Of a stretch of DNA of 64,000 bases, positions 8,169 to 34,166 are shown piece after piece (the first letter of the stretch is position 1; every line of letters starts with the position of its first letter). The position numbers and the translations under genes are program-made. The DNA comes from Lachnospiraceae bacterium. Lineage in GTDB: Bacteria > Bacillota > Clostridia > Lachnospirales > Lachnospiraceae. The notes below the pieces were generated by a model. It was not told the DNA's origin and ran no database searches. It was given only the letters and a program-made list of their open reading frames with translations. The stretch is from NCBI GenBank assembly GCA_030526985.1, contig JAUNBT010000001.1, positions 2,838 to 66,837 on the forward strand, in the 5' to 3' direction.

Positions 8169-9184
8169 TACTCTTCTCTGCCTGCACCTTTGTCTGCATT
8201 GTGTCCGCCTAAGAATTCAATGTATTTTCCAGTACCAATGGCAACAACAGTAAGCGGATCATCTGCTGTCATTGTATTGATTCCTGTCTTTTCTTCAATC
8301 AATTCTTCTAATCCCTGTACTAAAGAACCGCCTCCGGTAAGAACAATGCCTCTCTCTGCAATATCAGCTGCAAGTTCTGGTGGAGTACGCTCTAATACAT
8401 TGTGTACCGCTTCTACAATCTGAGAAGCAACTTCCTGAAGAGCCTCTCTCGTATCTTCTGAAGTGACTGTAACTGTCTTTGGAAGACCGGTTACAAGATT
8501 ACGTCCTTTGATTTCCATGCTGGCCTCACTTGGACGGCTTGTCACTGTACCAATCTGAATCTTAATCTCTTCCGCTGTTCTCTCGCCAATCAAAAGATTA
8601 TGTTTCTTTCTCACATGACGAACTAATGCCTCATCAAAATCATCCCCGGCTACTTTGATGGAAGTGCTTACCACAGTACCACCAAGAGAGATGACAGCAA
8701 TATCTGAAGTTCCGCCTCCGATATCCACAATCATATTACCGCAAGGTTTAGAAATATCAATGCCGGCACCAATTGCTGCTGCCACAGGCTCTTCAATAAT
8801 GAAAACATCTCTTGCCCCTGCCTGATACGTTGCATCTTCCACTGCCTTCTTCTCAACTTCTGTTGCGCCACTTGGAATACAAACGCTGATTCTTGGTTTT
8901 CTTCCAAAAAAGCTCTTGCCAATGGATCTTTGTACAAAATATTTTAACATCTTCTCTGTCACTGTGTAATCGCTGATTACGCCCTGACGAAGAGGTCTGA
9001 TTGCTACAATGTTGCCCGGAGTACGTCCAATCATCAGACGTGCTTCTTCTCCTATTGCCATTATTTTCTTTGTATCTCTGTTAATAGCTACAACGGATGG
9101 CTCTTTTAAAACTACGCCCTTGCCCTTTACATAGACAAGAATACTCGCTGTACCTAAATCAATTCCGATATCTACGGCTGCCAT
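8168..9184 (-). CDS. mreB: Rod-shape-determining actin homologue MreB/Mbl
   Basis: 338 aa. IGIDLGTASILVY, MIVDIGGGTSDIAVISLGG and GIVLTGGGSLVQGL actin-fold motifs. Its stop overlaps the recD2 start (TAATG). Confidence 0.9.
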   Translation of the reverse strand: MAAVDIGIDLGTASILVYVKGKGVVLKEPSVVAINRDTKKIMAIGEEARLMIGRTPGNIVAIRPLRQGVISDYTVTEKMLKYFVQRSIGKSFFGRKPRISVCIPSGATEVEKKAVEDATYQAGARDVFIIEEPVAAAIGAGIDISKPCGNMIVDIGGGTSDIAVISLGGTVVSTSIKVAGDDFDEALVRHVRKKHNLLIGERTAEEIKIQIGTVTSRPSEASMEIKGRNLVTGLPKTVTVTSEDTREALQEVASQIVEAVHNVLERTPPELAADIAERGIVLTGGGSLVQGLEELIEEKTGINTMTADDPLTVVAIGTGKYIEFLGGHNADKGAGREE

Positions 9185-9465
9185 AATAATAGTCCCCTTT
9201 CGTTAAATCATCACATATCCCATTTATTATATACGATATTGTAATTTTTTCAAATCCTTTTTTCTTATTTTTTCTTAAAATTTGCAGTCATTTTCCGAAC
9301 GAAGGCATAAAATAGTGAAAAAACGGAAATAAATGCTGTATTCTGCCAAAGATCACTCCGCCCTCAATGACATTTTTTCCTTTCTGTGCATATTCTATTC
9401 TATAGTTTATTTATTTGTTTGTCAAAGCCATCTCTTTACAGGAAAACATTTTGAAAGGAGCCTCC

Positions 9466-10230
9466 ATGGAAAAAGCACTCTCCCTTTCCCATGTCACATA
9501 TACCTACCACACCAGCCAGGGAGAAACCAAGGCAGTCGATGATATCACTTTTGATGTAAAAAAAGGCGAATTCAGTGCCATAGTCGGACCCAGCGGCTGT
9601 GGCAAATCCACCTTGCTCCATCTGATTGCCAACCTCCTGACCCCCTCTAGAGGAAATATTTTAATTAAAGGGCGTCCCGTCTCATTAGTCAGTGAAAATA
9701 TCGGATATATGCTGCAGCGGGATCAACTTTTAGAACACAGGACAATTTATCAAAATATTACTCTGGGTCTGGAAATCCAAAAGAAAGTGACAAAGAAAAA
9801 TCTGGAACGAATCAATGAAATGTTAGAGCAGTATGGTCTCTATGATTTCCGCCATGTCTATCCCAGACAGCTTTCCGGAGGAATGCGCCAGCGAGTTGCA
9901 CTAATCCGCACGTTAGCATTATCTCCGGAACTTCTTCTTTTAGATGAGCCTTTCAGTGCCCTTGACTATCAGACCCGCCTTAAAGTCTCCGACGATATCG
10001 GCACAATTATTAAAACAAAAAAAATTACTGCCATCTTAGTCACCCATGATTTATCAGAGGCGATCAGTATGGCAGACCGGGTCATTGTTCTTTCCAGCCG
10101 ACCGGGACGAATCAAAACGATCCTGCCGATTCATTTTGCCATCAAACCAGACTCGCCGGAAGCTGCCAGAAATGCACCGGAATTCAAAGATTATTTTAAC
10201 CGGATATGGAAGGAGATTAAAAATGAATAA
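9466..10230 (+). CDS. ABC transporter ATP-binding protein (nitrate/sulfonate/taurine-type importer family)
   Basis: Walker A GPSGCGKST, signature LSGGMRQRV, Walker B LLLLDEPFSALD. The ATG at 9466 follows AAAGGAG, and the ORF-track start at 9415 has no RBS. Confidence 0.85.
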   Translation: MEKALSLSHVTYTYHTSQGETKAVDDITFDVKKGEFSAIVGPSGCGKSTLLHLIANLLTPSRGNILIKGRPVSLVSENIGYMLQRDQLLEHRTIYQNITLGLEIQKKVTKKNLERINEMLEQYGLYDFRHVYPRQLSGGMRQRVALIRTLALSPELLLLDEPFSALDYQTRLKVSDDIGTIIKTKKITAILVTHDLSEAISMADRVIVLSSRPGRIKTILPIHFAIKPDSPEAARNAPEFKDYFNRIWKEIKNE

Positions 10231-10918
10231 AGAAATATCGAAAGAACAACTCGCCTATCTGGAAGCCCGCAAAGTAACCGCCATCAAAATCCGGCTGATT
10301 CAAATCATCATTTTTGTTGTTTTCTTATGTCTCTGGCAGTTCGCCTCGTCAAAAAAAATCATTAATCCCTTTATTTTCAGCAGTCCTGAACGGATTTTCA
10401 TCTGCTTTTGTCAAATGGTCGTAGATAAAACCCTGTTTCGTCATGTTGGACTTACTCTGATGGAAACTTTTATCAGCTTTTTTCTTGTATTCGCCTTAAG
10501 CGTCGGTATTTCGGTTCTGCTTTGGTGGAACAAGACCCTGTCCTCTATTTTAGAACCTTACCTGGTCGTACTCAACAGCCTGCCGAAATCTGCCTTAGCT
10601 CCGCTTCTACTTGTCTGGTTTGGTGCCACAATACAAATGATTCTGATTACCGCTGTCTCTGTCGTCATTTTCGGCAGTATACTAAATATTTATACCGGAT
10701 TTCAGGAAACAGATCCGGATAAATTAATGTTAATCCGTACACTTCGAGGTAATAAATGGCATTGCCTTAAATTAGTCGTCATTCCCGGCAGTATCCCCAT
10801 TCTATTCGGCGTAATGAAATCCAACATAGGCTTATGCTTAGTTGGCGTCATCATCGCCGAATTCATGGGAGCCAGAGCCGGACTTGGATATTTAATCATT
10901 TATTCCAGCCAGGTCTTT
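10223..10918 (+). pseudogene. ABC transporter permease, 5' part, interrupted by an inserted element
   Basis: The ATG at 10223 overlaps the ATPase stop. TM-rich sequence runs up to ...AGLGYLIIYSSQVF. After 10918 the reading frame leaves permease-like sequence and stops at 10960. The missing C-terminus is found at 16023-16127. Confidence 0.8.
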
Positions 10919-13019
10919 CCTCTTGCAGGAGTTTTTGAGATTCTGAATGTGGACATCTAGTGACCACCCATTTCCCCCATCCCCCTTTTCCTTCAAAATG
11001 AACCCATCCATCTTTTTTTAGTCTTCTAATTTTGTATTCTACTGCCGATAGACTCTGTCCTGTCAAAAGTGCAATTTGACGGGCTGTGATTGTTGGCGTT
11101 TCTTCTATTATAGAAAGAATTTCTTTTCGTTCTTCTTCCTTTTTTGCCTGGATTCCCTGATTTTTTATCCCTATGGAAATAGGAGCGGAGAAAAGATTTA
11201 TCTCCTGGTTCCTTCGTTTTTGTTGTTCCCGATTTTGATTCATATAGAGAAGAAGATACTGAGGGTACACCTCTATTCTTTCCGTTTTCTTTATCATTTG
11301 TTCCACTATCACCTGCTCCATGATAGAGTCTTTCATACACAGGTCTATTTTTTTCAACCTGTTTTCCAGCCTGTCTTCCACCGTTATTGTATCTTTCCTA
11401 TTCTCCTGATTTATTTTTATTTTGCTGGGAACGACTTGATGATACTGTTCCTGTAACTGTTCCCTGACTTTTATCTTTTGCCTTTCCAGCTGATTTTGTC
11501 TCACGACATATTTTTCTTTGGAAATCGTCTGGTCAAGCAGACAGTCGAGCAATATTTCCTGTTTTTGCTCCAACTCTTTTTCTTTTTGTTCCAATGCTGT
11601 CTTTTGAGATTCCCATTTCCACGAATTTTTCGTTTCCTCTAACAAAACAGTTCTCAATAACTCTACCATTTTAATTCTCAGCCTCTTTTGCTCTTCATAA
11701 ACCGGCATATCATATTTTTCTCGATTCTTATACAGAATTTTCTTTAGATACTCTTCCGGCAAATGAAGATTATCACAGCCTTCCTTTTCGTCTGCCGTTT
11801 TTCCTTTCCATAATTTCGGTTTTTGATATTGGATACTTTTTCTTCCATAACTTAGATAGGTATTGCATTTCCATTGTATAACTCTTGTTTCTTTACCGTC
11901 TTTTTCTTTTTTGTCATAATAAGTTCTATAATAGGGTGCCTTACATAGACCGCATCTGATTTTACCGGAAAAGATCGGTTTTTCCCGATTCGTACTCCTT
12001 TGAAATGAAAAATCTGTTTTTGAATCTTGAAATGTATTTTGATTGGCTGTTTTTCCCCTTTCATCCACACTCCGATTGGCCCTTTCCCACAATTCTTTGG
12101 AAATAATTGCAGGGACTCTGTTTTCATGAACAATCCATTGTTCTTTTGGAAGATTTATCAACATTTTACGCTCAAAGTCATAGTGTTTTTTGTTCATGAC
12201 CACAGTTCCTTTGTAGAGAGGATTTCGAATCATCCGCAGTATACTGGCATCGGAAATCCGGTTTCCATTTCGATTCCGATATTCTTCCCGATAAAGCTCA
12301 TTTGCGATTCTTTTACATCCCAGACCATTTGCCGCCAACTGATAGATTCTCTCAATCATCGGTGCTTCCTTAACATCAATTTCAACTGTTTTGTCCGGCA
12401 TTTTTTTGTATCCGTAAGTTCGATTGGTAAGAATCAGATTTCTTCCGGTCTGCTGTCTGTGGTAATGGGCATTATTGATCTTTTTGGAAAGTTCCCGGCT
12501 ATAATCCTCCGCCAGAATGGCCTTAATTCCGATAATCAGGCTGTCTTTCGGCATATAAAATTTTCTTTCCAGATAAAGATACAGTTTTTTTCTGTTTTGC
12601 ACCATACGGTCAAGAAACAGATACCAGTCTTTTACATTCCTCATAAGACGGTCCACAGATTTAATAATAATAATGTCAAAATAATCGGTCTCCAGATCTT
12701 CATATAATTTTTGATATTCAAAACGTCCATAAGTAGATGTGGCACTTTTACTCTCTACATACTGATTCAAAAGTTCCCAACCCATCTGCTCTGCGCACTG
12801 ACAGGCTTCTTCTATCTGTTGTTCCAATGCATTTTTCTGGGATTCCTCCTCTGTGCTGCAGCGACAATAGATAACTGCCCGCTCTTTTTCCTCAGTCTCC
12901 CATCTGATCTGATTATTTATACTTATTATTTCTTTCACTGTTTTCCTTAGACAACCTTTCCCATAATTTTTTATATTCCTGTTCTGTAATCTGATTTCCC
13001 CGCAAAAGGTACGTTGCAA
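10896..13019 (-). CDS. Large serine recombinase (resolvase domain, recombinase domain, zinc ribbon/coiled coil, extra C-terminal winged-helix-like tail)
   Basis: AVIYCRCSTEEESQ (catalytic Ser context), SVDRLMRN, GYKK...IYQL..G.G...IA..L recombinase domain, and CGLCKAPYYR...WKCNTY zinc ribbon. The true start is probably the GTG near 12938 (VKEIISINN..., AAGGA RBS). The last 7 codons and the stop lie in host DNA left of the junction. Confidence 0.85.
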   Translation of the reverse strand: MQRTFCGEIRLQNRNIKNYGKGCLRKTVKEIISINNQIRWETEEKERAVIYCRCSTEEESQKNALEQQIEEACQCAEQMGWELLNQYVESKSATSTYGRFEYQKLYEDLETDYFDIIIIKSVDRLMRNVKDWYLFLDRMVQNRKKLYLYLERKFYMPKDSLIIGIKAILAEDYSRELSKKINNAHYHRQQTGRNLILTNRTYGYKKMPDKTVEIDVKEAPMIERIYQLAANGLGCKRIANELYREEYRNRNGNRISDASILRMIRNPLYKGTVVMNKKHYDFERKMLINLPKEQWIVHENRVPAIISKELWERANRSVDERGKTANQNTFQDSKTDFSFQRSTNREKPIFSGKIRCGLCKAPYYRTYYDKKEKDGKETRVIQWKCNTYLSYGRKSIQYQKPKLWKGKTADEKEGCDNLHLPEEYLKKILYKNREKYDMPVYEEQKRLRIKMVELLRTVLLEETKNSWKWESQKTALEQKEKELEQKQEILLDCLLDQTISKEKYVVRQNQLERQKIKVREQLQEQYHQVVPSKIKINQENRKDTITVEDRLENRLKKIDLCMKDSIMEQVIVEQMIKKTERIEVYPQYLLLYMNQNREQQKRRNQEINLFSAPISIGIKNQGIQAKKEEERKEILSIIEETPTITARQIALLTGQSLSAVEYKIRRLKKDGWVHFEGKGGWGKWVVTRCPHSESQKLLQEERPGWNK

Positions 13020-13116
13020 TTAAATAAAGAATTTCCTGACTTTCTTCTTTACACATAAAAAAGCACATCCCTTTTTTATCAGAATATGCTTCTTTTCTTT
13101 TTTTGTTCTGTTCCAA

Positions 13117-14693
13117 TCATTCTTCCGATTTATAAACCGGCTCTGGAAAGTCCGCACTTCCGATTAAAACTTTTTTCCCCTCAAATGCAAAACCATATTT
13201 TCGGATACGTTCTTTCGGAATTCCTCTTGCCGTTAACTGTGATTCATATTTTTTCTCATCGATTTGTTTTAATGCACATTTTACTGTATCAGAGAGATTT
13301 TTTTCTCTCCGGCTATTGAAGACCTTAAATTCTAAAATAATTCCATCCTCATTTTCTGATTTCGGCTCCAATAATACATCATATCTTCCAAACCCGCTTT
13401 CCCAATTCGATGTGATAAAATATCGATTTTGAAGATCCACAATCAATCCCAGTATAAAACCATGATAAAAACGTTCCGGTTCCCTTTTTTTCGTGTCGTC
13501 TTTTCCTTGATCTACATCAAAAAAGCTGAACATGCTAAGCGCAATCCGGTTCATATATTCATTCATGGCATCCAAATCATCCTCCAACAATGCCTTTAAA
13601 AAATCATTGTAATTATCGCTGTATTTCGAAAACCAGTCACGAACCATATTTTCAAACATAAGCTGTACTTCCAGATTGGTAAGCTTTAATTGATAGTATT
13701 CCTGCCCACGCTCCGTCTGCAGCTGTCCACAGATAGTCAGATAACCACTTGCAAGCAAAAGACTCCATACTGCATTCTCCGAGGTATCTAATTGATTAAA
13801 CACCAGCTGTTCCTCCAGCATTTGCTCTAAACACTCTCCCATGAGCAGCTTTTCAAAGTTGACTTTCAGCAATCTGCTGCCTTCCCGAATCACTTTTCCA
13901 ATCATCGCATTACTGCTTGTATTAGCCCAATAAGGTTTCAATTTCCTTTCGTCTAAATAATTCGTAATGGACCACGGATTATAAATTCCGCTTACATTTC
14001 CAAAGGTAAATCCGTCATACCATTTCTTTACCTCTGCTTTATGAGCTGTCAGTCCATATTCTTCCAGTGCCAAAAAAACTTCTTCTTCTGTAAATCCAAA
14101 ACAATCCGCATATTTATCCGACACCGCTGTTACTACAACCATGTTATTCAGATCGGAAAAGATAGACTCCCTGCTCACTCTGGTAATTCCCGTAAGAAGT
14201 GCCCTCTCCATATATGGATTTGACTTAAATGTAGAGTTAAAAATACCACGCATAAATCCTGCTAATTCATCCCAGTATCCATATACATAGGCCTCCTGCA
14301 TCGGTGTGTCATACTCATCTAAAAGCAAAATTACTTTTTTATCATAATATTTTGACAAATCTTCTTCTTTGTCTCTAAAAATGTAGTTTCTTTCACTTCA
14401 GCAAAACTTAAAAACAAGACCGGGTAAGTACCTTGCAGCCTTCGATACTGATTGTCTTCATATATATGAAGTCCTTCAAATAAGTCTTTTTTCTCCCGAT
14501 ATTCATAGGAAAAAAATGCTTCTGTCATGCTGAGCGTCAAGGTTTTTCCAAAACGACGGGGACGGGTAATCAAGGTAACCCTATCCTTGCTTTCCCACCA
14601 TCTTTTTATAAACAGGGTCTTATCGATATAAAAGGCCTGTTCTTTTATTATTTCTTCAAAATTCTGAAATCCAATTCCCACTGTTTTTGCCAC
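13117..14693 (-). pseudogene. AAA-ATPase-like / PD-(D/E)XK family gene, frameshifted and internally deleted
   Basis: Two overlapping ORFs (14331-14693 and 13117-14358) are both homologous to the intact paralogue at 2536-4227 (FYIDKTLFI...RPRRFGKTLTLSM, then VILLLDEYDTP...GRYDVLL...LEFKV). The frame switches near 14340-14360. About 50 aa are missing relative to the intact paralogue. Confidence 0.75.
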
Positions 14694-14784
14694 GACATCA
14701 CCAGCTTCCTTCTTCGCTAAAAAATCATTTCACCTTCTATTTCTTATCCTTTATTATAACCGATTTCTTCTTTTATGAACACTA

Positions 14785-15915
14785 TTATTTCCGGTTTACA
14801 AGATCCATCTCGAAATAGAATGTATAACAATCTTTTCCCAGTCTTTTTGATTTATACAATGCCTCATCTGCATGTTCAAAGAGCTCGTCATACTGCATTC
14901 CATTCTCAGGATATAAGGCAATTCCAATGCTTCCATGGATTTGTCTGGCTTTCTGGGGCATTTCAATCTGCTCTTTCATCATTTTAGTCAACTGCTCCAC
15001 CTTTCCGGTTACCTCTTCTTTACTTTTCATTTTCGGAATAAAAATGACAAACTCATCTCCACCGAATCTCCCCTTCACATCTTTTTTATCAAATATTTTG
15101 ATAATACACTCGCCCATACGGCGAAGCACAGCGTCCCCATAGATATGACCATAGGTATCATTAATTGATTTAAAATCGTCGATATCTATGACAAGCAGGG
15201 CCGCTTTTTCCTCTGTATTTTCGATACACTCTTTTATTCTTCTCTGGGTTGCCGATTTTGTCATAAGCTTTGTCAAATCATCCATATCCCGTTCCCGTTC
15301 AATATAGCGCTGCATAATCAAATCGTGTATTTTCGTCTGGGTAATATGAATATTTACTGCAATTCCAAGAAACAGAAAACTCAAGCTGTTTACCATATCT
15401 AAGTTTGCCATCTCAGCAGGCTTGATTTGATAGGATATATAACAAAAAATAAAGGTAACTACGATCAGGAGAAGGGACATGCGGTAAGGCTTATCGATAA
15501 AAAGGAGAGGAATCACAAAGAGAAGGACACAAAAGGTTGTGGCCGGTTTATCCGGCTGATTGAAAACTCCTAAAACAATGCCAAAGCTATATGTAATAAT
15601 CATTAAAGCGTAGCATCCTGCCAATACCATTTTAGGATGATTTTTACCACACTGTATAGAAAGAAAAAATAATATTCCGATTGCAATCATACAGATTCCG
15701 TACAAATTCCGGTTTCCTTCTATCGTACTGTCTTTAAATGACGCTGCAAACAATAAAAACAAAATAATCCCTGCAATCAAAGTAATACTGCGCAAAACAT
15801 CGCTGTTTTTCTTCTGAATCAAATCTTCCACATCCATATAATCTTTTGGATCGTTACAGCCGTAAATCAAAAATTTTCTAACCCAGAATTTGACTGTTTC
15901 AACTTTGTTTTTCAT
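14785..15915 (-). CDS. Membrane-anchored diguanylate cyclase (GGDEF domain)
   Basis: 376 aa. Multi-TM N-terminus, then DIDDFKSINDTYGH and RFGGDEFVIF (GGDEF active site). Confidence 0.85.
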   Translation of the reverse strand: MKNKVETVKFWVRKFLIYGCNDPKDYMDVEDLIQKKNSDVLRSITLIAGIILFLLFAASFKDSTIEGNRNLYGICMIAIGILFFLSIQCGKNHPKMVLAGCYALMIITYSFGIVLGVFNQPDKPATTFCVLLFVIPLLFIDKPYRMSLLLIVVTFIFCYISYQIKPAEMANLDMVNSLSFLFLGIAVNIHITQTKIHDLIMQRYIERERDMDDLTKLMTKSATQRRIKECIENTEEKAALLVIDIDDFKSINDTYGHIYGDAVLRRMGECIIKIFDKKDVKGRFGGDEFVIFIPKMKSKEEVTGKVEQLTKMMKEQIEMPQKARQIHGSIGIALYPENGMQYDELFEHADEALYKSKRLGKDCYTFYFEMDLVNRK

Positions 15916-16022
15916 ATGAAATCTCTCTCCTCCTTACTTTTTCCCAGCAGGGAAACCAAAGGTTTCCAAGCTTGTCTCTAAACAACTACTGTACTTTTAT
16001 CAAAAAAGCTTCCTGCCTCTTT

Positions 16023-16127
16023 AAACTAGATTGGCTTTTAATGTCTGTGATTTTACTTTGCCTTATGGCTATGGCTCTCTATGGAATCGTTGGAAAATTG
16101 GAAAAATGGATTTTTTCAGAAGAATAA
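16023..16127 (+). pseudogene. ABC transporter permease, displaced 3' fragment
   Basis: Manual translation gives KLDWLLMSVILLCLMAMALYGIVGKLEKWIFSEE*. This is the last TM helix and tail typical of this permease family. It is in frame with 10916-10918 once the element is removed. Confidence 0.75.
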
Positions 16128-16144
16128 TATAGAAGATGATATCA

Positions 16145-16183
16145 CTGTTCAGAACCGGAGGATACGGTTCTGAACAGTTTTTC
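16145..16183 (+). terminator. Intrinsic terminator after the permease fragment
   Basis: 13-bp perfect stem CTGTTCAGAACCG / CGGTTCTGAACAG, followed by TTTTT. Confidence 0.8.
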
Positions 16184-16200
16184 TTTCTATTCATTTTTGA

Positions 16201-16644
16201 TTAATTGGATTTTATACGTTTTGATTTTGCTTCAATCACAATCTCACAATCAGAAATATGGGTATAATTCACTTCCAGTGAATATCTTACTTTGGCGCGA
16301 ATCTTATCTTCCTCTTCCCGGATTCGGATTGATTCTGTTGTCACTCCCATCAAAAGACTCCCCATCACCGTATCATAATAGGTCAGGTTCGTCTTGCCCT
16401 CCTCAAAAATCATCTGGGCATTGGTCGCGCCACTTTTAAAGACTTCTACTTTATTCGGATCAATCTTAATTCGATTCTTGGTAAGACCGCCATCTTCCAT
16501 ATCAGACTCATCGTATAAAATATAATGTTTTCCATTCTTATTATAATAGGAACCCATCGTAATCAATTCTACCGGTTCAGAGGCTTCAATCTCAAACTGA
16601 ATGCCGGACACGGTTACCATAATCTCTTTTGTCATTCTATTCAT
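16201..16644 (-). CDS. DUF1934 family protein (YwiB-like)
   Basis: 147 aa. Beta-rich pattern ...YYNKNGKHYILYDES.......IKI....V.....G.......F..G... is typical of DUF1934. Confidence 0.6.
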   Translation of the reverse strand: MNRMTKEIMVTVSGIQFEIEASEPVELITMGSYYNKNGKHYILYDESDMEDGGLTKNRIKIDPNKVEVFKSGATNAQMIFEEGKTNLTYYDTVMGSLLMGVTTESIRIREEEDKIRAKVRYSLEVNYTHISDCEIVIEAKSKRIKSN

Positions 16645-18684: not shown

Positions 18685-19860
18685 TTAAATGATTTTATAA
18701 GTATTCTTTCCAGATTTTTTCGCCATATACATGGCGCGGTCGGCAAGTTCAAATCCATCTTGAAAAGTTTGAAACCGTCCCGGCTTCACCAAAAGCCCCC
18801 CGACACTTACGGAATAGGAAAGTTTATCCTTCTCTGTTTTCACCAGTTCATTACATTTATGACAAAGCATTTTTGCTCTTTGCTTGATAAGCTCTTTTGA
18901 AATACTGCTATTTCTCATAAATACGACAAATTCATCTCCTCCAAATCTTCCGACGATATCATCTTCCCGAAATACAGTCCGAAGCTCACCTGCAATTTTT
19001 CGAATCAGCAAATCCCCTTCTGCATGGCCTAAGCTGTCATTTACCACTTTAAAATCATCGATGTCCACTACAAACAGGGCACCACCCTCTATGATGATTT
19101 CATCAATCAGAGTCATCGCTGTCACCTTGTTTAAAAGCCCTGTTAGTCCATCGTGGCTTGCTTTTCGGGACAGGCGTTTCATCTCTTTTTCGTATCCCAT
19201 CATCTTAATCAGCCGCATATTATAAAACAGAAAGCCCCAATTCGCACACCAAAACAGAATGCAGATAACAATATTATCCACAATTAACCACGGATTTTTC
19301 AACAATTCTTCTGAAAACAGATATCTGTGGAGTAAAAGGAATAGATTACTCGTTCCCATCCAGCCATTCATTCCCCTTCGAAAAGACGGATGATCGGCGA
19401 TAAGCCGTATCTTTTTCATTGGTAGCTTCTTCTGGGCAAAGGACAAAATAAGAATCAAGGCTGTCGTTGCAACAACTGCACAATGCCAGGTAAAGAATTT
19501 CCCTTTTGACGACCAGTCTGTCCACTGACCTGCAAATAATAAAATAGAAAATACAAGGGTATTGATTACGATAATATTTAAAATATAGGCATTGACCAAA
19601 AATAATACGGATGGCTTCTGCCCATGCCACAAAAGGTTATATGCCAAAAACATAGTAACATAGAGTGACACAATTGCTGCTTCCCCTGGCAAAAATAAAA
19701 TTCCCACTTCGCAAAGCAGACTTCCAATCAGGCAGACAGCGATGCGCTTTCCGCCTGAAGCTTTAATCTCTTTAAAAATCGTCTCTGAAAATACCAGCGA
19801 TTTGCGGGCAAAAATGAATATAAGAATATATAATAACAAAACCCGGATGATTGCTTCCAT
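18685..19860 (-). CDS. Membrane-anchored diguanylate cyclase (GGDEF domain)
   Basis: 391 aa. Polytopic N-terminus, then DIDDFKVVNDSLGH and RFGGDEFVVF. Confidence 0.85.
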   Translation of the reverse strand: MEAIIRVLLLYILIFIFARKSLVFSETIFKEIKASGGKRIAVCLIGSLLCEVGILFLPGEAAIVSLYVTMFLAYNLLWHGQKPSVLFLVNAYILNIIVINTLVFSILLFAGQWTDWSSKGKFFTWHCAVVATTALILILSFAQKKLPMKKIRLIADHPSFRRGMNGWMGTSNLFLLLHRYLFSEELLKNPWLIVDNIVICILFWCANWGFLFYNMRLIKMMGYEKEMKRLSRKASHDGLTGLLNKVTAMTLIDEIIIEGGALFVVDIDDFKVVNDSLGHAEGDLLIRKIAGELRTVFREDDIVGRFGGDEFVVFMRNSSISKELIKQRAKMLCHKCNELVKTEKDKLSYSVSVGGLLVKPGRFQTFQDGFELADRAMYMAKKSGKNTYKII

Positions 19861-19930: not shown

Positions 19931-20647
19931 TTAAAAAAATTTTTTTAATTTTTCAACCAGCTTCCATTTGATATGCATTACTTTTTTCTTTTCTCCCGCT
20001 TTTGTCTGTCCAGTTTTTTCTCTATTTACTTGATTTAGGAAAAGCGATGCATAAGTATCCTCCGTCAGATTATTTTCAAATTCTTCCTTTGCTTTTTGGG
20101 GCACCTCCTCTATGGCTCCCCCTGCAGTACAAAGAGAAGGATACATCATGCACCACCAGTTCTTTCCTTTTGCCTCTCCTAAGTCCACCCGAAGAGCGTC
20201 ATAGACACCGCAGGGAAAAATCATATCGCCATATTGTTTTAATGGAAATTCTTCTCTGGTAAGTTTTACCTTAACCTTAATATTTTCTCCCTCGGATAAG
20301 CACACCGCTCTGGCAATTTCTTCGATTTGTTTTCTATTATTTTCTACTATTTCCATACAGCTTTGTTTCGACTTACAGTCACCTAAAAGTTCCTGCAGAT
20401 AAACTAACACATGGTCTTTGACTTTTAATTTCAAACGCTGATCTTCTTCTTTGTCACTGACCGCCCGGATATGAAAGCGCAGAACATTCTTTGAGATCTC
20501 TAGCTGTCTTGTCTGCTGCTGCGATGATTTCTTTTGCTTCCATGCAATCCTGCTCCCTGCGAAAAGAATCATAATCAAGAAACATACCATACAAAAAGGA
20601 ACTATAACCATTCGCCTGGCTGCTTTTTTATTCTTTCTTTCTGTCAT
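19931..20647 (-). CDS. spoIIR: Stage II sporulation protein R
   Basis: LRFHIRAVSDKEEDQRLKLKVKD and NWWCMMYPSLC are hallmark SpoIIR motifs. An N-terminal signal anchor is present. Confidence 0.85.
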   Translation of the reverse strand: MTERKNKKAARRMVIVPFCMVCFLIMILFAGSRIAWKQKKSSQQQTRQLEISKNVLRFHIRAVSDKEEDQRLKLKVKDHVLVYLQELLGDCKSKQSCMEIVENNRKQIEEIARAVCLSEGENIKVKVKLTREEFPLKQYGDMIFPCGVYDALRVDLGEAKGKNWWCMMYPSLCTAGGAIEEVPQKAKEEFENNLTEDTYASLFLNQVNREKTGQTKAGEKKKVMHIKWKLVEKLKKFF

Positions 20648-20685
20648 AAGAAAATCCTCCTTTTCTTTTGGAGTATTCCCTGTTT

Positions 20686-22422
20686 TTAATCTTCCAAAAC
20701 AATCCTTTTTTCCTCTAAATAAAGAAGAGGAATTTCCCCATTTTTTCCCTCTGCCCTATCTCTCAATAAATCGCAGAGTGTATATTCTTTTCTCCCGTCT
20801 TCTTTATGATTTACAATCAATTTTTCCAAATAATCTCCAAGCGAAACGGACATTTCTTTTTCCAGTGCGATACAGTCTTTTGCTGGTGCCTCAGTTAGAA
20901 ACACAAAGATTGTTCCGGATAGATTATCTTTTTCTTCTAACTCTTTTAAAATCTGTTCCCTGCTCTCTTTTTTCTGATACACTTTTTTGGAAATTAGAAT
21001 CGCTTTTAAATGGCCAAAGTCCAGTTCCTTTTCATCGGACCGGGCATCTTCTCTTTCTGCCTGTAAAAGGCTGTCTGCCTCATAGGAGGTCTCCTCCCCT
21101 TTCTGCTCACTTCCCCCTTCCCCCTCTCCGGACGGTTGATTTAGATTGGCTGTTCCGTAAGTAATTTCAAACAGCTTCTCCTCTCCTGCATCTATACCAA
21201 GAGAAAGCACATAATTTTTATCTTCAATATCTGTTCTGCTGCCGCAGCCGCTCAAAATCGTTCCGACAAAAAAAAGTAAAACCAAAAGCTGTCCCACCTT
21301 TTTCCCTCTTTTTTCTTTTCTCTTCACAAGTCGTAAAAGAAACGGTAGACCGACTGCCAGGGGAAAATCAATCCACATCATATATTGAAAAAACAGCCCT
21401 ACACTCCTTTCCGGATCTGGAAAACAGACGGCAAGAAGAAAAATACCTCCAAGAAACACCAACGCATACCCTTTTGTATTCCAGTTTTGCCTCCCATTCT
21501 GTTTCCATTTTCTGACCATGCGCTCACTATAAAATAAATATCCGGAAAATAAAGCAAACACACTGAAAATCCAAAAAGCTAAAAATAAAATATCCAGTCT
21601 TTCTAAAAAATGTCCCGGCAGCCTTACATTTTGCATAATAGAGAGGGCAGACCACAATTGCTCTCCTGTCCGAACTGTCCCAAACATTCCTGTAGTGGCA
21701 ATATAAATCCATAAATTTAAAAGAATAACAAAGAATACTGCCTTTCCAAGTGGAAATCCTTTTTTCTTTTCTACCTTCGTCACCGGATATAAAAATAAAA
21801 TAAATTCCATCGATGTGTAGGTCATTACTATTTGATAAGTTGTCCCAAGGTTTTCCATTAAAGAATGCTTTTCTCCCCAGAGCATATCCGGAAGCATTTC
21901 ATAATTCACCTGAAAAAGTGCAAGAATAAGGACAAAGATAAGTGGCACAAAAATATAGTAAAACAACATTTCCAATAACCGTGCCCGAACAGACAGATTT
22001 TTTCTCGCTGCGTAGTAAGAGATTAGAAGAACCGGAAAAAGGATGAGACCTATGCTTTGTTTTGGCAATAACACCGACTGAATCAAAGCAGAAAACAAAA
22101 TCATTAAAAATAATCCTCGAATAAAAAAACGAACACAATATAGCAATGTATATATTCCTGAAAACCATTTTCCAGGAAGAATAGAAATCTCCGTTTCATA
22201 GCTTTCCAAAAACCCTTCCCCAAGCCACAGGTAATACGCCGCCAAAAGAATGGCTGCCGCCGCCCCATAAAGCATAGGCGTAAGACCGCCTTTTCCGGAG
22301 GAGCGGACAACCAGACTTGGCAAAATCATGCTGGTCATACTGAAAAGTTCAATCATGACCATCCGTTGAAACTGTCTTTTTGAAATTTTTTCTACTTTTC
22401 TCTGTCCCATACACTGCCTCAT
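20686..22422 (-). CDS. Spore germination protein: GerAB-type permease fused in frame to the N-terminal half of a GerAC-type lipoprotein
   Basis: 578 aa. About 365 aa form a 10-TM GerAB-like permease. This is followed by KKVGQLLVLLFFVGTILSGCGS (lipobox) and IEDKNYVLSLGIDAGEEK, which resembles a GerAC N-domain. Confidence 0.7.
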   Translation of the reverse strand: MRQCMGQRKVEKISKRQFQRMVMIELFSMTSMILPSLVVRSSGKGGLTPMLYGAAAAILLAAYYLWLGEGFLESYETEISILPGKWFSGIYTLLYCVRFFIRGLFLMILFSALIQSVLLPKQSIGLILFPVLLISYYAARKNLSVRARLLEMLFYYIFVPLIFVLILALFQVNYEMLPDMLWGEKHSLMENLGTTYQIVMTYTSMEFILFLYPVTKVEKKKGFPLGKAVFFVILLNLWIYIATTGMFGTVRTGEQLWSALSIMQNVRLPGHFLERLDILFLAFWIFSVFALFSGYLFYSERMVRKWKQNGRQNWNTKGYALVFLGGIFLLAVCFPDPERSVGLFFQYMMWIDFPLAVGLPFLLRLVKRKEKRGKKVGQLLVLLFFVGTILSGCGSRTDIEDKNYVLSLGIDAGEEKLFEITYGTANLNQPSGEGEGGSEQKGEETSYEADSLLQAEREDARSDEKELDFGHLKAILISKKVYQKKESREQILKELEEKDNLSGTIFVFLTEAPAKDCIALEKEMSVSLGDYLEKLIVNHKEDGRKEYTLCDLLRDRAEGKNGEIPLLYLEEKRIVLED

Positions 22423-23969
22423 GATTTTCCCCCTTTCCGGCGGATTCTTGCTCCCTTTTTTGTAAAGTAAGGTCTTTCGTTCATTCCGGATAAAGGCAGC
22501 CGAAAGTGGTAATCCTTGTGATCTTTTCCGGCTGCCATGGTTCCCGATACAGTCGGCATAAGATAAGGAACTCCGAAGCTTTCAAGACTGCTAAGGTGAA
22601 TGGCTAAAAACAGCCAGGCTAAGAAAAATCCATAGATTCCCCACAGGGCTGCCATAGCGATAAATCCAAATTTCAACAACCGGAATGCTGTTGTCATTGT
22701 CTCATTGGGAATAGAAAAGGAAGCAATTGCCGTAAGTGACACCACAATCACTACAATCGTACTGACAATTCCTGCATCCACAGCCGCCTGTCCCACAATC
22801 AGTCCTCCCACAATTCCAATGGTTCCACCCAACTGTCCCGGCAGACGGATTCCCGCTTCTCTCAAAAGCTCAAACTCCAATTCCATTAAGAGCACCTCCA
22901 CCACGATGGGAAAGGGAATCCCATTTCTCGCCTGGGCAAAGGAGAGTATCAGCGATGTAGGAAGAATTTCTGTGTGAAAATTTGCCGCCGCAATATAAAA
23001 TGCCGGAAGACCGATGGCAAGAAAAGCCGCCGCATAGCGAAGAATCCGGGCAAAGGTCGCCGCCTCCCAGCGATTATAGTAATCATCACTTGCCTGAAAA
23101 AACGTATTCCATGTCACCGGCAGAATCAGTACATCCGGTGAGTTATCGACAACCAGTACAATCCGTCCCTCCAACAAGGCGGAGGCCGTTTTATCTGGTC
23201 TTTGAGTATGCTGAAAATGAGGGAATGGTGTCCTCCAGTCTTCCACTAAAAGCTGCTCTAACATTCCACTGTCCAAAATCCCGTCCATGGTGATATGAGA
23301 CAGTCTGTTTTGAATGGAATATAAAATATCCGGCCGGACCAGATCATCAATATACATCAGTGCAATATCTGTCTTAGAGCGCTCTCCCGCCGTTTTTTGT
23401 TCCACCTTTAACCGGCTGTCCCGAATTCTTCTGCGAATGAGAGCCGTGTTTGTCCGTAGACTTTCACTAAAGCTGTCCTTCGGTCCACGGATGGCTACTT
23501 CCTGGTCTGCCGCCTGTACGCCCCTGGTCGGAAACATTTTACTGGAAATCATAATGGCACTGGCCGCACCCTGAAACATCAAAATTGTATTGCCGGAAAG
23601 AATTTGTGTCACCACATCCTCTAACTGGGAAAGTTCCTTCATATCTGCCATCTCCAACACTTCTTTTTCCACAAACTGAAGAAGTTTTCTCCCTTTTACC
23701 TCCGCTGTTCCCTCGTAATGCTCTAACCGGCAGTGAAGAAGTGGCCGCATAATAGACTCCTCCAACATATCCGTTTTTGCCAGTCCGTCAATATAGCACA
23801 GATAGGCACTGTGATCTCTGTCTATCCCACACGCAAATTCTTTCTCCACTAAGTCATTACAGTCTTTTAAAATTTCTTTCACCAGAAAAATATTTTTGGA
23901 AAGCTGTCTTGACACTCTCCCTTTTATTTTTTGATCTCTTCCATGGAAACGATCCAATAAAATCACCAC
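22419..23969 (-). CDS. Spore germination protein, GerAA/GerKA family
   Basis: 516 aa. Contains ...RGPKDSFSESLRTNTALIRRRI... and a C-terminal TM block typical of GerA-family A subunits. It overlaps the downstream gene by 4 nt. Confidence 0.85.
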   Translation of the reverse strand: MVILLDRFHGRDQKIKGRVSRQLSKNIFLVKEILKDCNDLVEKEFACGIDRDHSAYLCYIDGLAKTDMLEESIMRPLLHCRLEHYEGTAEVKGRKLLQFVEKEVLEMADMKELSQLEDVVTQILSGNTILMFQGAASAIMISSKMFPTRGVQAADQEVAIRGPKDSFSESLRTNTALIRRRIRDSRLKVEQKTAGERSKTDIALMYIDDLVRPDILYSIQNRLSHITMDGILDSGMLEQLLVEDWRTPFPHFQHTQRPDKTASALLEGRIVLVVDNSPDVLILPVTWNTFFQASDDYYNRWEAATFARILRYAAAFLAIGLPAFYIAAANFHTEILPTSLILSFAQARNGIPFPIVVEVLLMELEFELLREAGIRLPGQLGGTIGIVGGLIVGQAAVDAGIVSTIVVIVVSLTAIASFSIPNETMTTAFRLLKFGFIAMAALWGIYGFFLAWLFLAIHLSSLESFGVPYLMPTVSGTMAAGKDHKDYHFRLPLSGMNERPYFTKKGARIRRKGGKS

Positions 23970-29935: not shown

Positions 29936-30916
29936 TTACAAGTATTTTTCACAAAATTCTGCAAGGAAATGTTCTCTTTTTGTATTCTGTTCTATGTATC
30001 TTTTTAATTTTTCCAGATTTTTCGGTGGCAGAAAGCATTTTTTACTATTATAATACTGATTCGAAATCTTCCAGAACTTCTCCGGAAAGGAAAACAAAAG
30101 ATAAAGCAGACGGTAGTCTTCCTCTTGCATGGGAAGAACATGGCTATAGGCTTTGATTCCTTCTTCTAAAATCTTTTTCTGATATTGATTTTTCTCCAAA
30201 GCCTTTCTGATTATATTATAGAAATCCAAAATCTGCTGATTGTAGTGAAACTGTCCTATATTAAGGACTGCCGTCTTTTCTCCGGCCATCAACACATTGT
30301 GCTGGTGATATCCGCCGTGACAGATTCCATATCCCCTTTCCCACAGGGAATCCGGCTGCATTTTAGCCCATTCTAAAGCCGCTTTCCCTTCTTCATAAAA
30401 ATACTCGTAACAGGAAGTAAAGGTGAGTTCAAATCCAGTCCGCCTTCCGCTTTTTCTTATATAGGCACGAATTCGGCTAAGCTCTTTCACCTTGTGTTCC
30501 AACATACTTTTTATAGGAAGACTTTGTCTTTTTTCGATCTGATAACCATACATTTTCCTCAAGGCCTGATGAAGGCAGGCCAGACTTTCGCAGGCACGCC
30601 TGACATCCTCTGTCTCTTTTAAACTGCACTCTCTCCCTTCGAAAGAACGTTTCATAATAAATGGTGTACGATATTTATCATAAGAAAGAAGTCCTCCCTC
30701 TTTGTTTGGTATAATTTCATCCAGATTCAAAAAGCCGGCATCCATCAACTTTTTTTGAAGTTCATATTCGCAGGCCAGCCGCAGGGGAGAACCGTTGTAG
30801 GGAGTAATCATAAAAAGGTCCTGACTTGTGACGAGCTGCAAACACCCTCGGCTTCTATAACTGGTATCCACCGAAATATCGTATTGGTCTACTACTTCTT
30901 TTTGTTTTTCATTCAA
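29936..30916 (-). CDS. CotS-family spore coat protein / phosphotransferase-fold kinase
   Basis: 326 aa. ICHGGYHQHNVLM is a catalytic-loop-like motif of the CotS/APH fold. Sporulation genes are nearby. Confidence 0.55.
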   Translation of the reverse strand: MNEKQKEVVDQYDISVDTSYRSRGCLQLVTSQDLFMITPYNGSPLRLACEYELQKKLMDAGFLNLDEIIPNKEGGLLSYDKYRTPFIMKRSFEGRECSLKETEDVRRACESLACLHQALRKMYGYQIEKRQSLPIKSMLEHKVKELSRIRAYIRKSGRRTGFELTFTSCYEYFYEEGKAALEWAKMQPDSLWERGYGICHGGYHQHNVLMAGEKTAVLNIGQFHYNQQILDFYNIIRKALEKNQYQKKILEEGIKAYSHVLPMQEEDYRLLYLLFSFPEKFWKISNQYYNSKKCFLPPKNLEKLKRYIEQNTKREHFLAEFCEKYL

Positions 30917-30983: not shown

Positions 30984-31577
30984 TCAGCTTTTCATTCTCA
31001 TAAAACCTGACATCATGGCACCGCCGGCGGCACCCATTTTCATAACAATGCGAAGATTATCTTCCTGAATTCCGCCAAGAGCATAGACCGGAATTGTCAC
31101 ACTTTTACAGACCTGCTGTAAGAATGTTAATCCTCTTCCCGGAAGACCCTTTTTGCAATCCGTGGCAAACACATGACCTGCTGTTACATAGGAGACAGAA
31201 AGCTGCTGTGCTTCTAAAGCTTCCGTTACAGAATGAACGGAGGCACCGATTTTTAAGGTTTTCATCCAGCCGTCTCGATCAAAAAGCGTGAGCTTTCGAA
31301 GCTGTTCCATCGGAAGATGTACTCCTTTTGTTCCGATGTTTTTTGCTGCATTGATATAAGTATGTGCATATAAGGGCACCTGCCCTTTGCAAATGTCTGC
31401 ACATTTTCCGAGCATCTCTTCGTATTCCTTTTCAGGCAGATCCTTTTCCCTTAAAATAATCAGACGGGGCTTTTTTTCCACGACCCTCTTTATCTGATCA
31501 TAGAAATCCCCCTCCACCAAATGGCGGTTGGTAATGCAAATAAAATCGGAATATAGATTCTTTTTTTCTTCTGTCAT
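30984..31577 (-). CDS. thiE: Thiamine-phosphate synthase
   Basis: 197 aa. LREKDL, GVHL, GASVHS and ALGGI motifs. It is the last gene of the thi operon. Confidence 0.8.
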   Translation of the reverse strand: MTEEKKNLYSDFICITNRHLVEGDFYDQIKRVVEKKPRLIILREKDLPEKEYEEMLGKCADICKGQVPLYAHTYINAAKNIGTKGVHLPMEQLRKLTLFDRDGWMKTLKIGASVHSVTEALEAQQLSVSYVTAGHVFATDCKKGLPGRGLTFLQQVCKSVTIPVYALGGIQEDNLRIVMKMGAAGGAMMSGFMRMKS

Positions 31578-31583
31578 ATTGAT

Positions 31584-32738
31584 TTACACCCTGATATAAT
31601 TTGTATAAACCGGCTGCATTCCCTGGGCTAAAATAGCCTGATGGACTTCTTCCACGTTTCTTGGGTCTGAGATTTCGAACTGTTCATCTCCCTTTTTCTC
31701 CTCATCATGGCCGCCTACACTCACTTTCACACCGGCTGATATTTTGGTCGCACATAGGTTAATGACGTTATCACGGAAACCGGAACGCTCTCTTGTAGAA
31801 ATTGTAATTCCGGCATAAGGCATCAACAGGCGGTAAGATAACATAACTTGTAAAAGCTGGGTTTCATGGACGTCCTTCGGATTTTCCTCTGCATTGTTAA
31901 TGTAAGGCCGAAGTCTCGGCACAGAAAAAGAAATCTCCGCATGGGGATATGCCTGCTGAACAAAATAAGCGTGCAGTCCCACCGCATAGGCATCTTTTCT
32001 AAAATCAGAAAGTCCTAAAAGAGCTCCAAAACCAGCTCCTCTCATTCCACCCTTAAGGGCTCTTTCCTGGGCATTAAAACGATACGGAAATACTCTTTTA
32101 TGTCCGGACAAATGTACCTCTTCGTATTTTTTTGTATTATAAGTTTCCTGATATACACTGACAAAGTCTGCCCCACACTGTCTTAAGTAGGCATACTCAT
32201 CCGTGTTAAGGGGATATATCTCAATTCCAATTGTAGTAAAATACTTCGTTGCCAATTTTACCGCATCGCCGATATAAGGCACATCGGACATATGTCTGGA
32301 TTCCCCTGTGAGAAGAAGAATTTCCTGAAGTCCGGTTGCGGCAATATTTTTATACTCTTTTTCAATTTCTTCCATGGTAAGCTTCGCCCGATGGATTTTG
32401 TTCTTACAGTTATATCCACAATAGACACAATTGTTTTCACAGTAATTCGCGATGTAAAGAGGAGTAAAAAGACAGACTGCATTTCCAAAATTTCTCCTCG
32501 TCTCATATTGTCCCCGCACAGCCATCTGTTCTAAGTAGGGAAGTGCGGCCGGAGATAATAAGGCACCATAATCAGAAAGTGAGATTTCCTCCTGAGACAG
32601 AGCGTGCTCCACATCCTTTGCCGTGTAACTGTCATAATCATATTCTTCCATCAGGGCGAGAACCCGGTCCATAATCCTGGTATCCGTCTTCTCCATTCCT
32701 TCCATATACGTCATACAATCTGGTGTTGTCAAATTCAT
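31584..32738 (-). CDS. thiH: 2-iminoacetate synthase (radical SAM)
   Basis: 384 aa. CENNCVYCGY (CX3CX2C) and a BATS-like C-terminus. It lies next to thiG. Confidence 0.85.
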   Translation of the reverse strand: MNLTTPDCMTYMEGMEKTDTRIMDRVLALMEEYDYDSYTAKDVEHALSQEEISLSDYGALLSPAALPYLEQMAVRGQYETRRNFGNAVCLFTPLYIANYCENNCVYCGYNCKNKIHRAKLTMEEIEKEYKNIAATGLQEILLLTGESRHMSDVPYIGDAVKLATKYFTTIGIEIYPLNTDEYAYLRQCGADFVSVYQETYNTKKYEEVHLSGHKRVFPYRFNAQERALKGGMRGAGFGALLGLSDFRKDAYAVGLHAYFVQQAYPHAEISFSVPRLRPYINNAEENPKDVHETQLLQVMLSYRLLMPYAGITISTRERSGFRDNVINLCATKISAGVKVSVGGHDEEKKGDEQFEISDPRNVEEVHQAILAQGMQPVYTNYIRV

Positions 32739-32750
32739 CCTGCTCTCCTC

Positions 32751-33518: not shown

Positions 33519-33547
33519 TTTTGTAATCTCCTTTTTGTTTTTTATAT

Positions 33548-34165: not shown

Positions 34166-34166
34166 A

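Follow-up and report, generated by a model that had tools for sequence, protein, structure and literature searches.

A probable 5.1-kb large serine recombinase element within an ABC permease gene of a Lachnospiraceae bacterium

The window analysed here is a stretch of 64,000 nucleotides of contig JAUNBT010000001.1 (positions 2,838 to 66,837; assembly GCA_030526985.1) from an uncultured, spore-forming Lachnospiraceae bacterium. Positions 10919-16022 split the permease gene of an ATP-binding cassette (ABC) transporter, and this 5.1-kb insert is, with high confidence, a compact site-specific integrative element of a large serine recombinase (LSR). The insert has defined ends, its removal in silico restores the gene, relatives are interrupted at the same place, and other relatives carry the empty site. 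The initial annotation had described a serine-recombinase element with reconstructable attB and attP sites. This description agrees with the LSR domain set of the recombinase, with a sibling element at the same nucleotide for which empty alleles exist, and with at least seven alleles broken at one codon. The main addition to that finding is a landing site that appears, from comparison of the loci, to be common to the whole recombinase family. The element seems to be excisable in principle.

Interruption and reconstruction of the permease gene

The interrupted gene belongs to a two-gene operon on the plus strand. The first gene (9466..10230) encodes an ABC transporter ATP-binding protein (Pfam ABC_tran, E 2.9e-34) that has 254 residues from the ATG at 9466; the same length is called in relatives, and 254-residue orthologues stand directly 5' of the permease in L001-L003. 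The permease gene starts with the ATG at 10223. Its 5' fragment (10223..10918, plus strand) comprises codons 1-232, matches Pfam BPD_transp_1, ends in YSSQVF, reaches TATTCCAGCCAGGTCTTT at 10918, and diverges there into CCTCTTGCAGGAG. The present open reading frame (ORF) stops in element DNA at 10958-10960 and encodes 245 residues ending in QVFPLAGVFEILNVDI. The 3' fragment (16023..16127, plus strand) contains 34 codons (KLDWLLMSVILLCLMAMALYGIVGKLEKWIFSEE) and a stop at 16125-16127; it represents the last membrane helix, aligns with the C-termini of intact orthologues, and remains in frame without a disabling mutation. The insertion takes this helix away from the permease. Behind it lies the intrinsic terminator of the operon (16144..16188, plus strand), with a hairpin at 16144-16178 that has a perfect 14-bp stem including 7 G-C pairs and is followed by a T run, as expected for the strong terminator that had been proposed 3' of the rebuilt gene.

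Both junctions occur in the sequence as they had been quoted. The left junction at 10918/10919 is CCAGCCAGGTCTTT/CCTCTTGCAGGAG, and the right junction at 16022/16023 is GCTTCCTGCCTCTTT/AAACTAGATTGG, with the element side ending in AAGCTTCCTGCCTCTTT at 16022. TCTTT is common to both, and the 5104-bp deletion can be drawn in six registers with an identical product. In silico removal of 10919-16022 joins 10223-10918 to 16023-16127 in a single ORF of 266 residues, ending in QVFKLDWLLMSVILLCLMAMALYGIVGKLEKWIFSEE and a stop. Intact orthologues of the rebuilt permease in the protein collection have 264-266 residues and are 87-88% identical over 98-99% of the query, including the C-terminal peptide. 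They read through the join as YSSQVF/KLDWLLMSVILLC, and every intact orthologue in the alignment has the pattern GLGYLIIYSSQVF-KLDW(L/V)(L/I)MS(V/I)(I/V)LLC over it; only the window gene call P0008 (245 residues) departs there.

The proposal that the element interrupts a permease gene and that its deletion restores a normal C-terminus is confirmed by this alignment. Intact orthologues do not end naturally near 10960 and do hold the peptide encoded at 16023-16127. Uninterrupted alleles are present in relatives, namely in L001-L004 and L012-L015. L001 has the same gene order as the window, with RecD2 helicase, MreB, the ABC ATPase, and the permease, then DUF1934, MurI, and Ddl. The permease is of the NitT/TauT type; its best NCBIfam matches are SaoP, TauC, and SsuC, all below equivalog cutoffs, and no sporulation family in Pfam or NCBIfam matches it. 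No riboswitch or other RNA was found 5' of the ABC operon or in the element with Rfam, which was applied to the whole window at the gathering threshold and to 9000-16400 at a permissive one.

The recombinase and its small companion

All genes of the insert lie on the minus strand. The recombinase gene (10896..12941) encodes 681 residues from a GTG at 12941, with catalytic, recombinase, zinc-ribbon, and coiled-coil domains and a C-terminal winged helix. Pfam identifies Resolvase (PF00239, E 2.4e-22), Recombinase (PF07508, E 6.9e-23), and HTH_24 (E 8.1e-09, residues 606-647). In an alignment of 40 homologues the catalytic residues R27, S29, D97, R98, and R101, the cysteines C330, C333, C359, and C389, and the motifs AVIYCRCST and DRLMRN are invariant. 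An AlphaFold2 model built with the 40 homologues (mean pLDDT, the predicted local distance difference test, of 78) contains the catalytic and recombinase domains, zinc-ribbon strands at 328-359, long coiled-coil helices at 412-503, and the terminal winged helix. Foldseek places full-length serine-integrase/att complexes first (9y66, 9dxd, and 9dxh, E ~1e-20); Bxb1, PhiC31, and the Listeria integrase 4kis come next. The catalytic domain can be superposed on those of TP901-1 and a C. difficile transposon recombinase. The best NCBIfam match, CcrB, reaches 88 bits where the cutoff is 900. Judged by sequence and model together, the recombinase looks intact and full length, with a confident LSR fold.

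The recombinase gene has its stop codon (10896-10898) beyond the element end, within permease DNA, and the ORF crosses attL with a read-through tail of about 24 residues. The conserved end of the family proteins, GKGGxGxWVV, comes about 24 residues before this stop. The C-terminus reads QEERPGWNK in the integrated form and would read QEERGRKLF in the circle, so that the last seven residues differ (10896-10970). The read-through is probably incidental.

A small ORF (12913..13068, minus strand; 51 residues from the first ATG) overlaps the recombinase start and is a conserved companion in the family. A comparable ORF of 35-60 residues precedes or overlaps the recombinase start in at least 12 other family members, for example at L005 9301-9444, L009 2461-2631, and L026 6825-6992. 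These small ORFs share a hydrophobic or amphipathic helix followed by the pattern E.L(I/L).P.E....L..L. The window ORF has no significant match in Pfam, PHROG, or NCBIfam, and a faint SHOCT_2 match for two family members (E 0.08) is a lead only. The small ORF is a candidate accessory or directionality factor. Directionality factors show no sequence conservation (PMC12286644).

One permease codon in many elements

Apart from the window's own protein, the closest recombinase in the protein collection is P0122, with 52% identity. It is encoded in contigs L005-L007 beside a truncated orthologous permease. L002-L004 represent the same species and locus with an intact permease, and their left flank has 98.6% nucleotide identity. 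The occupied and empty alleles of this sibling differ by a 3.8-kb insert at a position identical to that of the window element. The sibling attB contains CCAGTCAGGTGTTTAAACTTGATTGG, its attL reads GGTGTTTAAA/TGTGTGGACTTTCTGAAATC, and its attR reads TTTCAGAATGGCAACACATCTC/TTTAAACTTGATTGG. Its cargo differs from that of the window element and consists of a DUF3990 protein with a helix-turn-helix (HTH) partner (L005 11457-12753), a pair that matches the PADLOC candidate defence pair PDC-M42 A/B (E 2.6e-43 and 2.3e-08).

A scan of metagenome contigs with the window and sibling recombinases gave 80 further loci at 36-54% identity, which were searched for the permease and for the motif GLGYLI.Y.SQ.F. 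The same Phe codon (QVF) immediately precedes the break in at least seven distinct interrupted alleles: those of the window, L005-L007, L016, L023, L036, L025/L026/L090, and a group of 37 human-gut contigs. In a lenient search, the 34-residue permease C-fragment was also found at the far element end in L008/L009, L017-L019, L028, L029, and L032. The scan of species-representative genomes gave five orthologous loci, among them one more broken allele, L016 (10640-10810), from the metagenome-assembled genome CASCWU010000046.1 of an uncultured wild-mouse Lachnospiraceae. Its permease is 48% identical and is broken at the exact codon (GSQVF/RCVRVSG); the contig ends 105 bp past the break, and the element there is unassembled.

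The elements of the family range from 2.3 kb to more than 16 kb, and the recombinase faces either way relative to the permease. L008 (5017-16644) and L009 (2570-14199) contain an element of at least 12-16 kb with recombinase P0143 (42% identity), which ends in the permease C-fragment. Its cargo comprises a LacI regulator with a sugar ABC system, PhdYeFM/ParE, MazE/PIN, a sigma factor, and MobA_MobL and DUF4368 fragments, so that it is possibly a composite or a mobilizable form. Wherever enough flank is available, members of the recombinase family abut this permease gene. The family has more than 1000 proteins, with the extra C-terminal winged helix and the small upstream ORF as its traits. No full-length recombinase relative was found in 50,697 phage records or in the plasmid collection. 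Presence/absence polymorphism and the varied cargo (candidate defence, toxin-antitoxin, and nuclease genes) point to an ordinary mobile-element family.

The group of 37 human-gut contigs, from an abundant species, has a 2.3-kb insert at the same permease codon (L051 4811-7952 and 36 more among L044-L094). It holds an ORF of 138 residues, a secreted Endonuclea_NS_2 nuclease, and a recombinase of 297 residues that consists of the catalytic and recombinase domains only. This stump is encoded on the permease strand, with 20 nt between its end and the permease C-fragment. The P arm there still mirrors the P' arm, which makes an internal deletion the simplest account. Polymorphism in this species is mostly at third positions and synonymous. 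The ratio of nonsynonymous to synonymous polymorphism (pN/pS) is 0.21 for the ATPase, 0.16 for the permease N-fragment, and 0.09 for the stump; these values come from small numbers, the permease fragment having 13 segregating sites after removal of one misaligned allele and the stump 30. This hints that selection still acts on both the split transporter and the stump. It also suggests that the truncated transporter is tolerated or still useful and that excision is not required for the host. In the phage records, a 14-kb human-faeces contig labelled 'Bacteriophage sp.' (MT836003.1, 3204-4040) matches only the stump, with 54% identity over residues 17-295; this may be a piece of bacterial DNA from the gut stump species that was filed as phage.

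Attachment sites and crossover

The attL core TCTTT (10914..10918, plus strand) is shared with attR. The P' arm of attP (CCTCTTGCAGGAGTTTTTGAGATTCTG, 10919..10945, plus strand) lies within the 3' tail of the recombinase ORF, and attR (15996..16022, plus strand) comprises the P arm (TTATCAAAAAAGCTTCCTGCC), which fits the P arms of relatives, and the core TCTTT at 16018-16022. The cores of the window element (TCTTT) and of the sibling (TTTAAA) have the TTT of the Phe codon in common, and every interrupted allele keeps GTN-TT before the break. The crossover can be placed at the first two T's, at 10916-10917 and 16020-16021, which are the first two bases of the Phe codon, because the two cores overlap in TTT and both attPs centre there.

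The reconstructed circular attP contains GCTTCCTGCCTCTTTCCTCTTGCAGGAG, and the rejoined attB contains CCAGCCAGGTCTTTAAACTAGATTGG. By manual count the window attP has 43 bp, from TCAAAAA to its mirror TTTTTGA, and is centred on TTT. The sibling attP is clearly symmetric (ATTTCAGAATGGCAACACAT and ATGTGTGGACTTTCTGAAAT) with TT at its centre and scores 14, a value that none of 2000 shuffles reaches. In ten related elements the P arm ends in [CT]TC-TTT, mostly with TATCA about 20 nt upstream, and the P' arms carry TGATA, TGAGA, or TGAAA at the mirror position. In the window the TATCA of the P arm has its mirror in the outer TGAGA, and the arms fit the family pattern TATCA...CTC-TT...TGAnA. The window att sites are thus homologous to those of relatives. 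A degenerate pattern, ATCA-N14-17-CTCTTT, was rejected as a diagnostic; it is too loose, with 5 matches in the window against 2.1 expected. The initial annotation had read attP as a pair of imperfect inverted arms. The window's P arm fits the pattern of the ten relatives; the symmetry of the window arms is only moderately above chance in a gapped comparison and is not significant in an ungapped scan.

Cargo and genomic surroundings

The element has a G+C content of 37.1%, against 41-42% in the flanks. Its first cargo gene (14785..15915, minus strand) encodes a membrane-anchored GGDEF diguanylate cyclase of 376 residues with an intact GGDEF motif (Pfam GGDEF E 2.1e-39; TIGR00254 above cutoff). 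A host gene for a membrane-anchored GGDEF protein lies less than 5 kb away, at 18685-19860. The cargo gene is not a recent duplicate of it, because the two are just 35% identical over the GGDEF domain. The other cargo gene is a pseudogene (13117..14693, minus strand) with AAA-ATPase_like and PD-(D/E)XK (PDDEXK_9, E 1.4e-17) domains, split into two ORFs (14693-14331 and 14358-13117). The AAA-ATPase_like profile matches one ORF with its positions 2-106 and the other with 136-201, and 107-135 are missing at the break. Beyond the domain matches reported here, searches of Pfam, PHROG, NCBIfam, and PADLOC with the small ORF and the window cargo found nothing.

No relaxase, coupling protein, or type IV secretion system (T4SS) match was found among the five element ORFs with Pfam, NCBIfam, and PHROG. 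The element has no phage structural, replication, or packaging genes either; its PHROG matches are an integrase, the helix-turn-helix region of that integrase, and GGDEF families of unknown function.

Sporulation and germination genes are located near the element, at window positions 19931-23969 and 29936-30916. The window has a SpoIIR equivalog (162.5 bits against a cutoff of 151.9), along with Ger receptor subunits (GerXA-like and a fused Ger(x)B/C-like ORF) and a CotS-family protein below their cutoffs. The host is taken as an endospore former because of these SpoIIR, Ger receptor, and CotS-family genes. A generic sigma-70 scan was uninformative on sporulation-confined expression. The window also contains a thiamine thiazole-branch cluster at 30984-34183 (TenI/ThiE-like, ThiH, and ThiF); no thiamine pyrophosphate (TPP) riboswitch or any other Rfam family was found in the 64-kb window at gathering thresholds.

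Proposed mechanism and alternative explanations

In established LSR biochemistry, a synapse forms between integrase dimers bound to attP and attB; both strands are cut at the central dinucleotide, and rotation and religation then give attL and attR. By analogy, the LSR would recombine the attP of a circular element (TATCAAAAAAGCTTCCTGCC-TC-TT-T-CCTCTTGCAGGAGTTTTTGAGA) with a chromosomal attB (CCAGCCAGGTC-TT-TAAACTAGATTGG). The attB would lie within the 3' part of the permease gene, and cleavage and exchange would take place at the TT of the conserved Phe codon. The expected products are attL at 10918/10919 and attR at 16022/16023. The element would bring in the GGDEF cyclase and the now decayed ATPase/nuclease gene as cargo. 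Its movement between cells would need a helper, because the element has no transfer genes of its own. The reverse reaction requires a directionality factor (PMC12286644; PMC5499854). Since the recombinase looks intact, the same enzyme with such a factor could reverse the insertion and rebuild the permease exactly. What the sequences show directly is the anatomy, the restored reading frame, the target common to the family, and the empty sites in relatives; the catalytic mechanism, present-day activity of the recombinase, and the role of the small ORF are inferred.

Several points weigh against this explanation. One cargo gene is decayed, and the element may be long resident and inactive. The symmetry of the window attP is modest, with a gapped arm score of 9 against 5.2 +/- 1.2 in shuffles, about 1.2% of which reach 9; an ungapped symmetry scan of the window attP and attB does not rise above shuffles. 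Zn_ribbon_recom (PF13408, E 5.7e-05) scores 23.9 bits, just below its cutoff of 25.3. Pfam, NCBIfam, and PHROG identify no recognisable directionality factor in the element, and the small ORF is the sole candidate. Exact searches did not find the reconstructed attB 42-mer in the species-representative genomes (one genome per species) or the 23-mer of P arm and core, common to attR and the circular attP, in the metagenome and viral collections. The collections searched contain no empty site, circular junction, or second copy of the window element. The host species is represented by a single assembly, and the window's own protein is its only one in the protein collection.

An origin from chance resemblance or from an assembly chimera of unrelated contigs might be considered, as a single assembly of the host species is available. 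It has next to no probability, and orthologue alignment, synteny, and independent assemblies effectively refute it: other species have both junctions at the same nucleotide in independent assemblies, synteny with L001 extends over both flanks, and the fragments join in frame and are 87-88% identical to orthologues over their full length. Immobilisation is a more serious matter, and it is possible, if unlikely, that a larger integrative mobilizable element has shrunk to a non-excising 5-kb remnant, leaving the permease permanently split. The cargo pseudogene fits this explanation, as do the lack of a relaxase, an oriT-associated gene, or a recognisable directionality factor (Pfam, NCBIfam, PHROG), the larger relatives at the same site (more than 12-16 kb, with MobA_MobL and toxin-antitoxin genes), the decayed 2.3-kb version with its 297-residue stump in the 37 human-gut contigs, and the failure to find an empty site or circle of the window element in any collection searched. 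A relic of this kind is harder to reconcile with a recombinase that is full length, retains all invariant catalytic and zinc-binding residues, and has a confident LSR fold, and with att arms that both fit the family pattern, a conserved small companion ORF that is intact, and a permease 3' fragment without a disabling mutation.

Regulated excision has been considered in two forms. The initial annotation had compared the insert to sporulation-linked intervening elements; the likeness goes no further than the host sporulation genes and an element without transfer genes. A developmentally regulated element of the skin, SPbeta, vfbin, or gin type, excised only in the sporulating mother cell to rebuild the permease, is quite improbable. 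SpoIIR above its cutoff, GerXA/B/C, and CotS are encoded close by, skin, SPbeta, and gin likewise use an LSR, the 3' part of the permease is intact and in frame, and the element lacks transfer and phage genes like the non-viral gin (PMC5595907). The target, however, is a generic NitT/TauT-family permease, whereas the known cases hit the mother-cell genes sigK, spsM, spoVFB, and gerE. The sibling is polymorphic within one species (present in L005-L007, absent in L002-L004), as expected of a mobile element, and cargo changes among family members, some with relaxase fragments, as is typical of small mobile islands. The gut species with a truncated recombinase keeps its split permease under purifying selection, and excision seems unneeded there. 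No sporulation-type promoter was found, and no search aimed at one was made. It is equally improbable that the insert is a reversible switch, resembling 'active lysogeny', in which regulated excision and re-integration toggle the transporter during vegetative growth. Excision would be exact, a dedicated conserved landing site in coding sequence is compatible with a switch, and the recombinase gene, which is antisense to the permease operon, reads in the direction of attL, an arrangement in which the two transcription units may interfere with each other. Against this, unrelated cargo occupies the same site in many species, as with site-specific parasites, and the species with a dead recombinase keeps the ATPase and permease fragment under purifying selection (pN/pS 0.21 and 0.16), which suggests that the truncated transporter is tolerated or still works and needs no switch. 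The compact site-specific LSR element remains the strongly favoured explanation.

Significance

A wider interpretation takes the permease codon as a dedicated landing pad of a previously undescribed Lachnospiraceae cassette system. This system would combine winged-helix serine integrases, a SHOCT-like partner as directionality factor, and interchangeable cargo; the transporter would be switched reversibly, and the purifying selection on the gut stump would reflect domestication of part of the machinery. As a whole this interpretation is doubtful. The cargo seen includes cyclic di-GMP signalling, candidate defence pairs, toxin-antitoxins, and nucleases; if the interpretation were true, transporter switching would be either a side effect or a regulated function.

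With this element, an uncultured gut Lachnospiraceae yields a clean attP/attB/integrase triplet that has been validated computationally. The set of homologous triplets on one attB is material for serine-integrase tools and for the study of att-recognition divergence under a fixed target. The finding explains the recurrent 'truncated ABC permease' annotation in Lachnospiraceae assemblies and flags a hot spot of small cargo islands.

Comparison with known systems

Elements of other classes were considered and rejected. A prophage or phage satellite does not fit an element without phage structural, replication, or packaging genes and with no full-length relative in the phage records. A plasmid-borne element is not indicated either, with no full-length recombinase relative in the plasmid collection. 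An integrative and conjugative element (ICE) or integrative and mobilizable element (IME) is not indicated, with no relaxase, coupling-protein, or T4SS match in the five element ORFs. Transposases of the TnpX/TndX type (Tn4451 and Tn5397) have DUF4368 and a relaxed, multi-target specificity, while the window recombinase has no PF14287 match and its family is tied to one site in one gene family (compare PMC10083194).

Like the window element, the staphylococcal cassette chromosome (SCC) is a cargo cassette that has no transfer machinery of its own and depends on LSRs for insertion at a single fixed position at the 3' end of a conserved gene. For SCC this gene is orfX/rlmH, and the recombinases are CcrA/CcrB pairs or CcrC. 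SCC carries variable cargo and can form composites, and CcrB is the best, though weak, named match of the window recombinase, which lies far below membership of the Ccr family (88 against 900 bits).

SPbeta, with SprA and SprB, and skin, with SpoIVCA, including skinCd, are cases in which precise excision by an LSR rebuilds a gene and a small partner sets the direction (PMC5499854, PMC5025042). Unlike the window element, these are prophages or what remains of them; they measure tens of kilobases and interrupt mother-cell genes. The window recombinase has no close sequence relationship to any named equivalog. The gin element of Bacillus cereus is a non-prophage element that intervenes in gerE; it has GirC and GirX, 31 genes, and three recombinases, and its excision in sporulation has been demonstrated (PMC5595907). 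Like the window element it is non-viral, is inserted by an LSR in coding sequence of a spore-former, and has no structural transfer genes. Both have a short common core and a gene that excision restores, in the window in silico; the imperfect inverted repeats of the gin attP have a counterpart of modest symmetry in the window. Excision of gin needs a small second factor, whose counterpart in the window would be the candidate small ORF. The gin target is a sporulation regulator rather than a transporter gene, and the window element has 5.1 kb and one recombinase.

IME_Rho_tet is a 10.7-kb IME of gut Firmicutes with a relaxase and mobC that mostly targets MAFF2 ORFs (PMC12904643). Such gut IMEs are similar to the window element in their small size, their occurrence in gut Clostridia, their variable cargo, and the use of a serine recombinase to enter ORFs that are small or conserved (PMC12904643). 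They have inverted-repeat ends. The window element differs from IME_Rho_tet in having no relaxase match and in targeting an ABC permease; larger members of its family carry MobA_MobL fragments.

LSR elements have been catalogued by comparative genomics, and that work describes distantly related LSRs that converge on one conserved coding site, with TT cores (Durrant et al. 2022, PMC10083194). The elements of the catalogue are like the window element in having a single LSR at the element edge, a short attB in conserved coding sequence, and a central TT. The targets given as examples there, in the portions at hand, are Mg-chelatase/ATP-dependent protease and prolyl isomerase genes and not this permease (PMC10083194). 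The window recombinase family differs in its additional winged helix at the C-terminus and in the conserved small ORF upstream, and its window member has no phage, plasmid, or conjugation genes. No new biological principle is involved; LSR elements that interrupt genes, and their convergence on conserved coding sites, are established phenomena. The permease target, the C-terminal winged helix, and the small companion ORF, which the available portions of the literature compared do not mention, are variations within this known theme.

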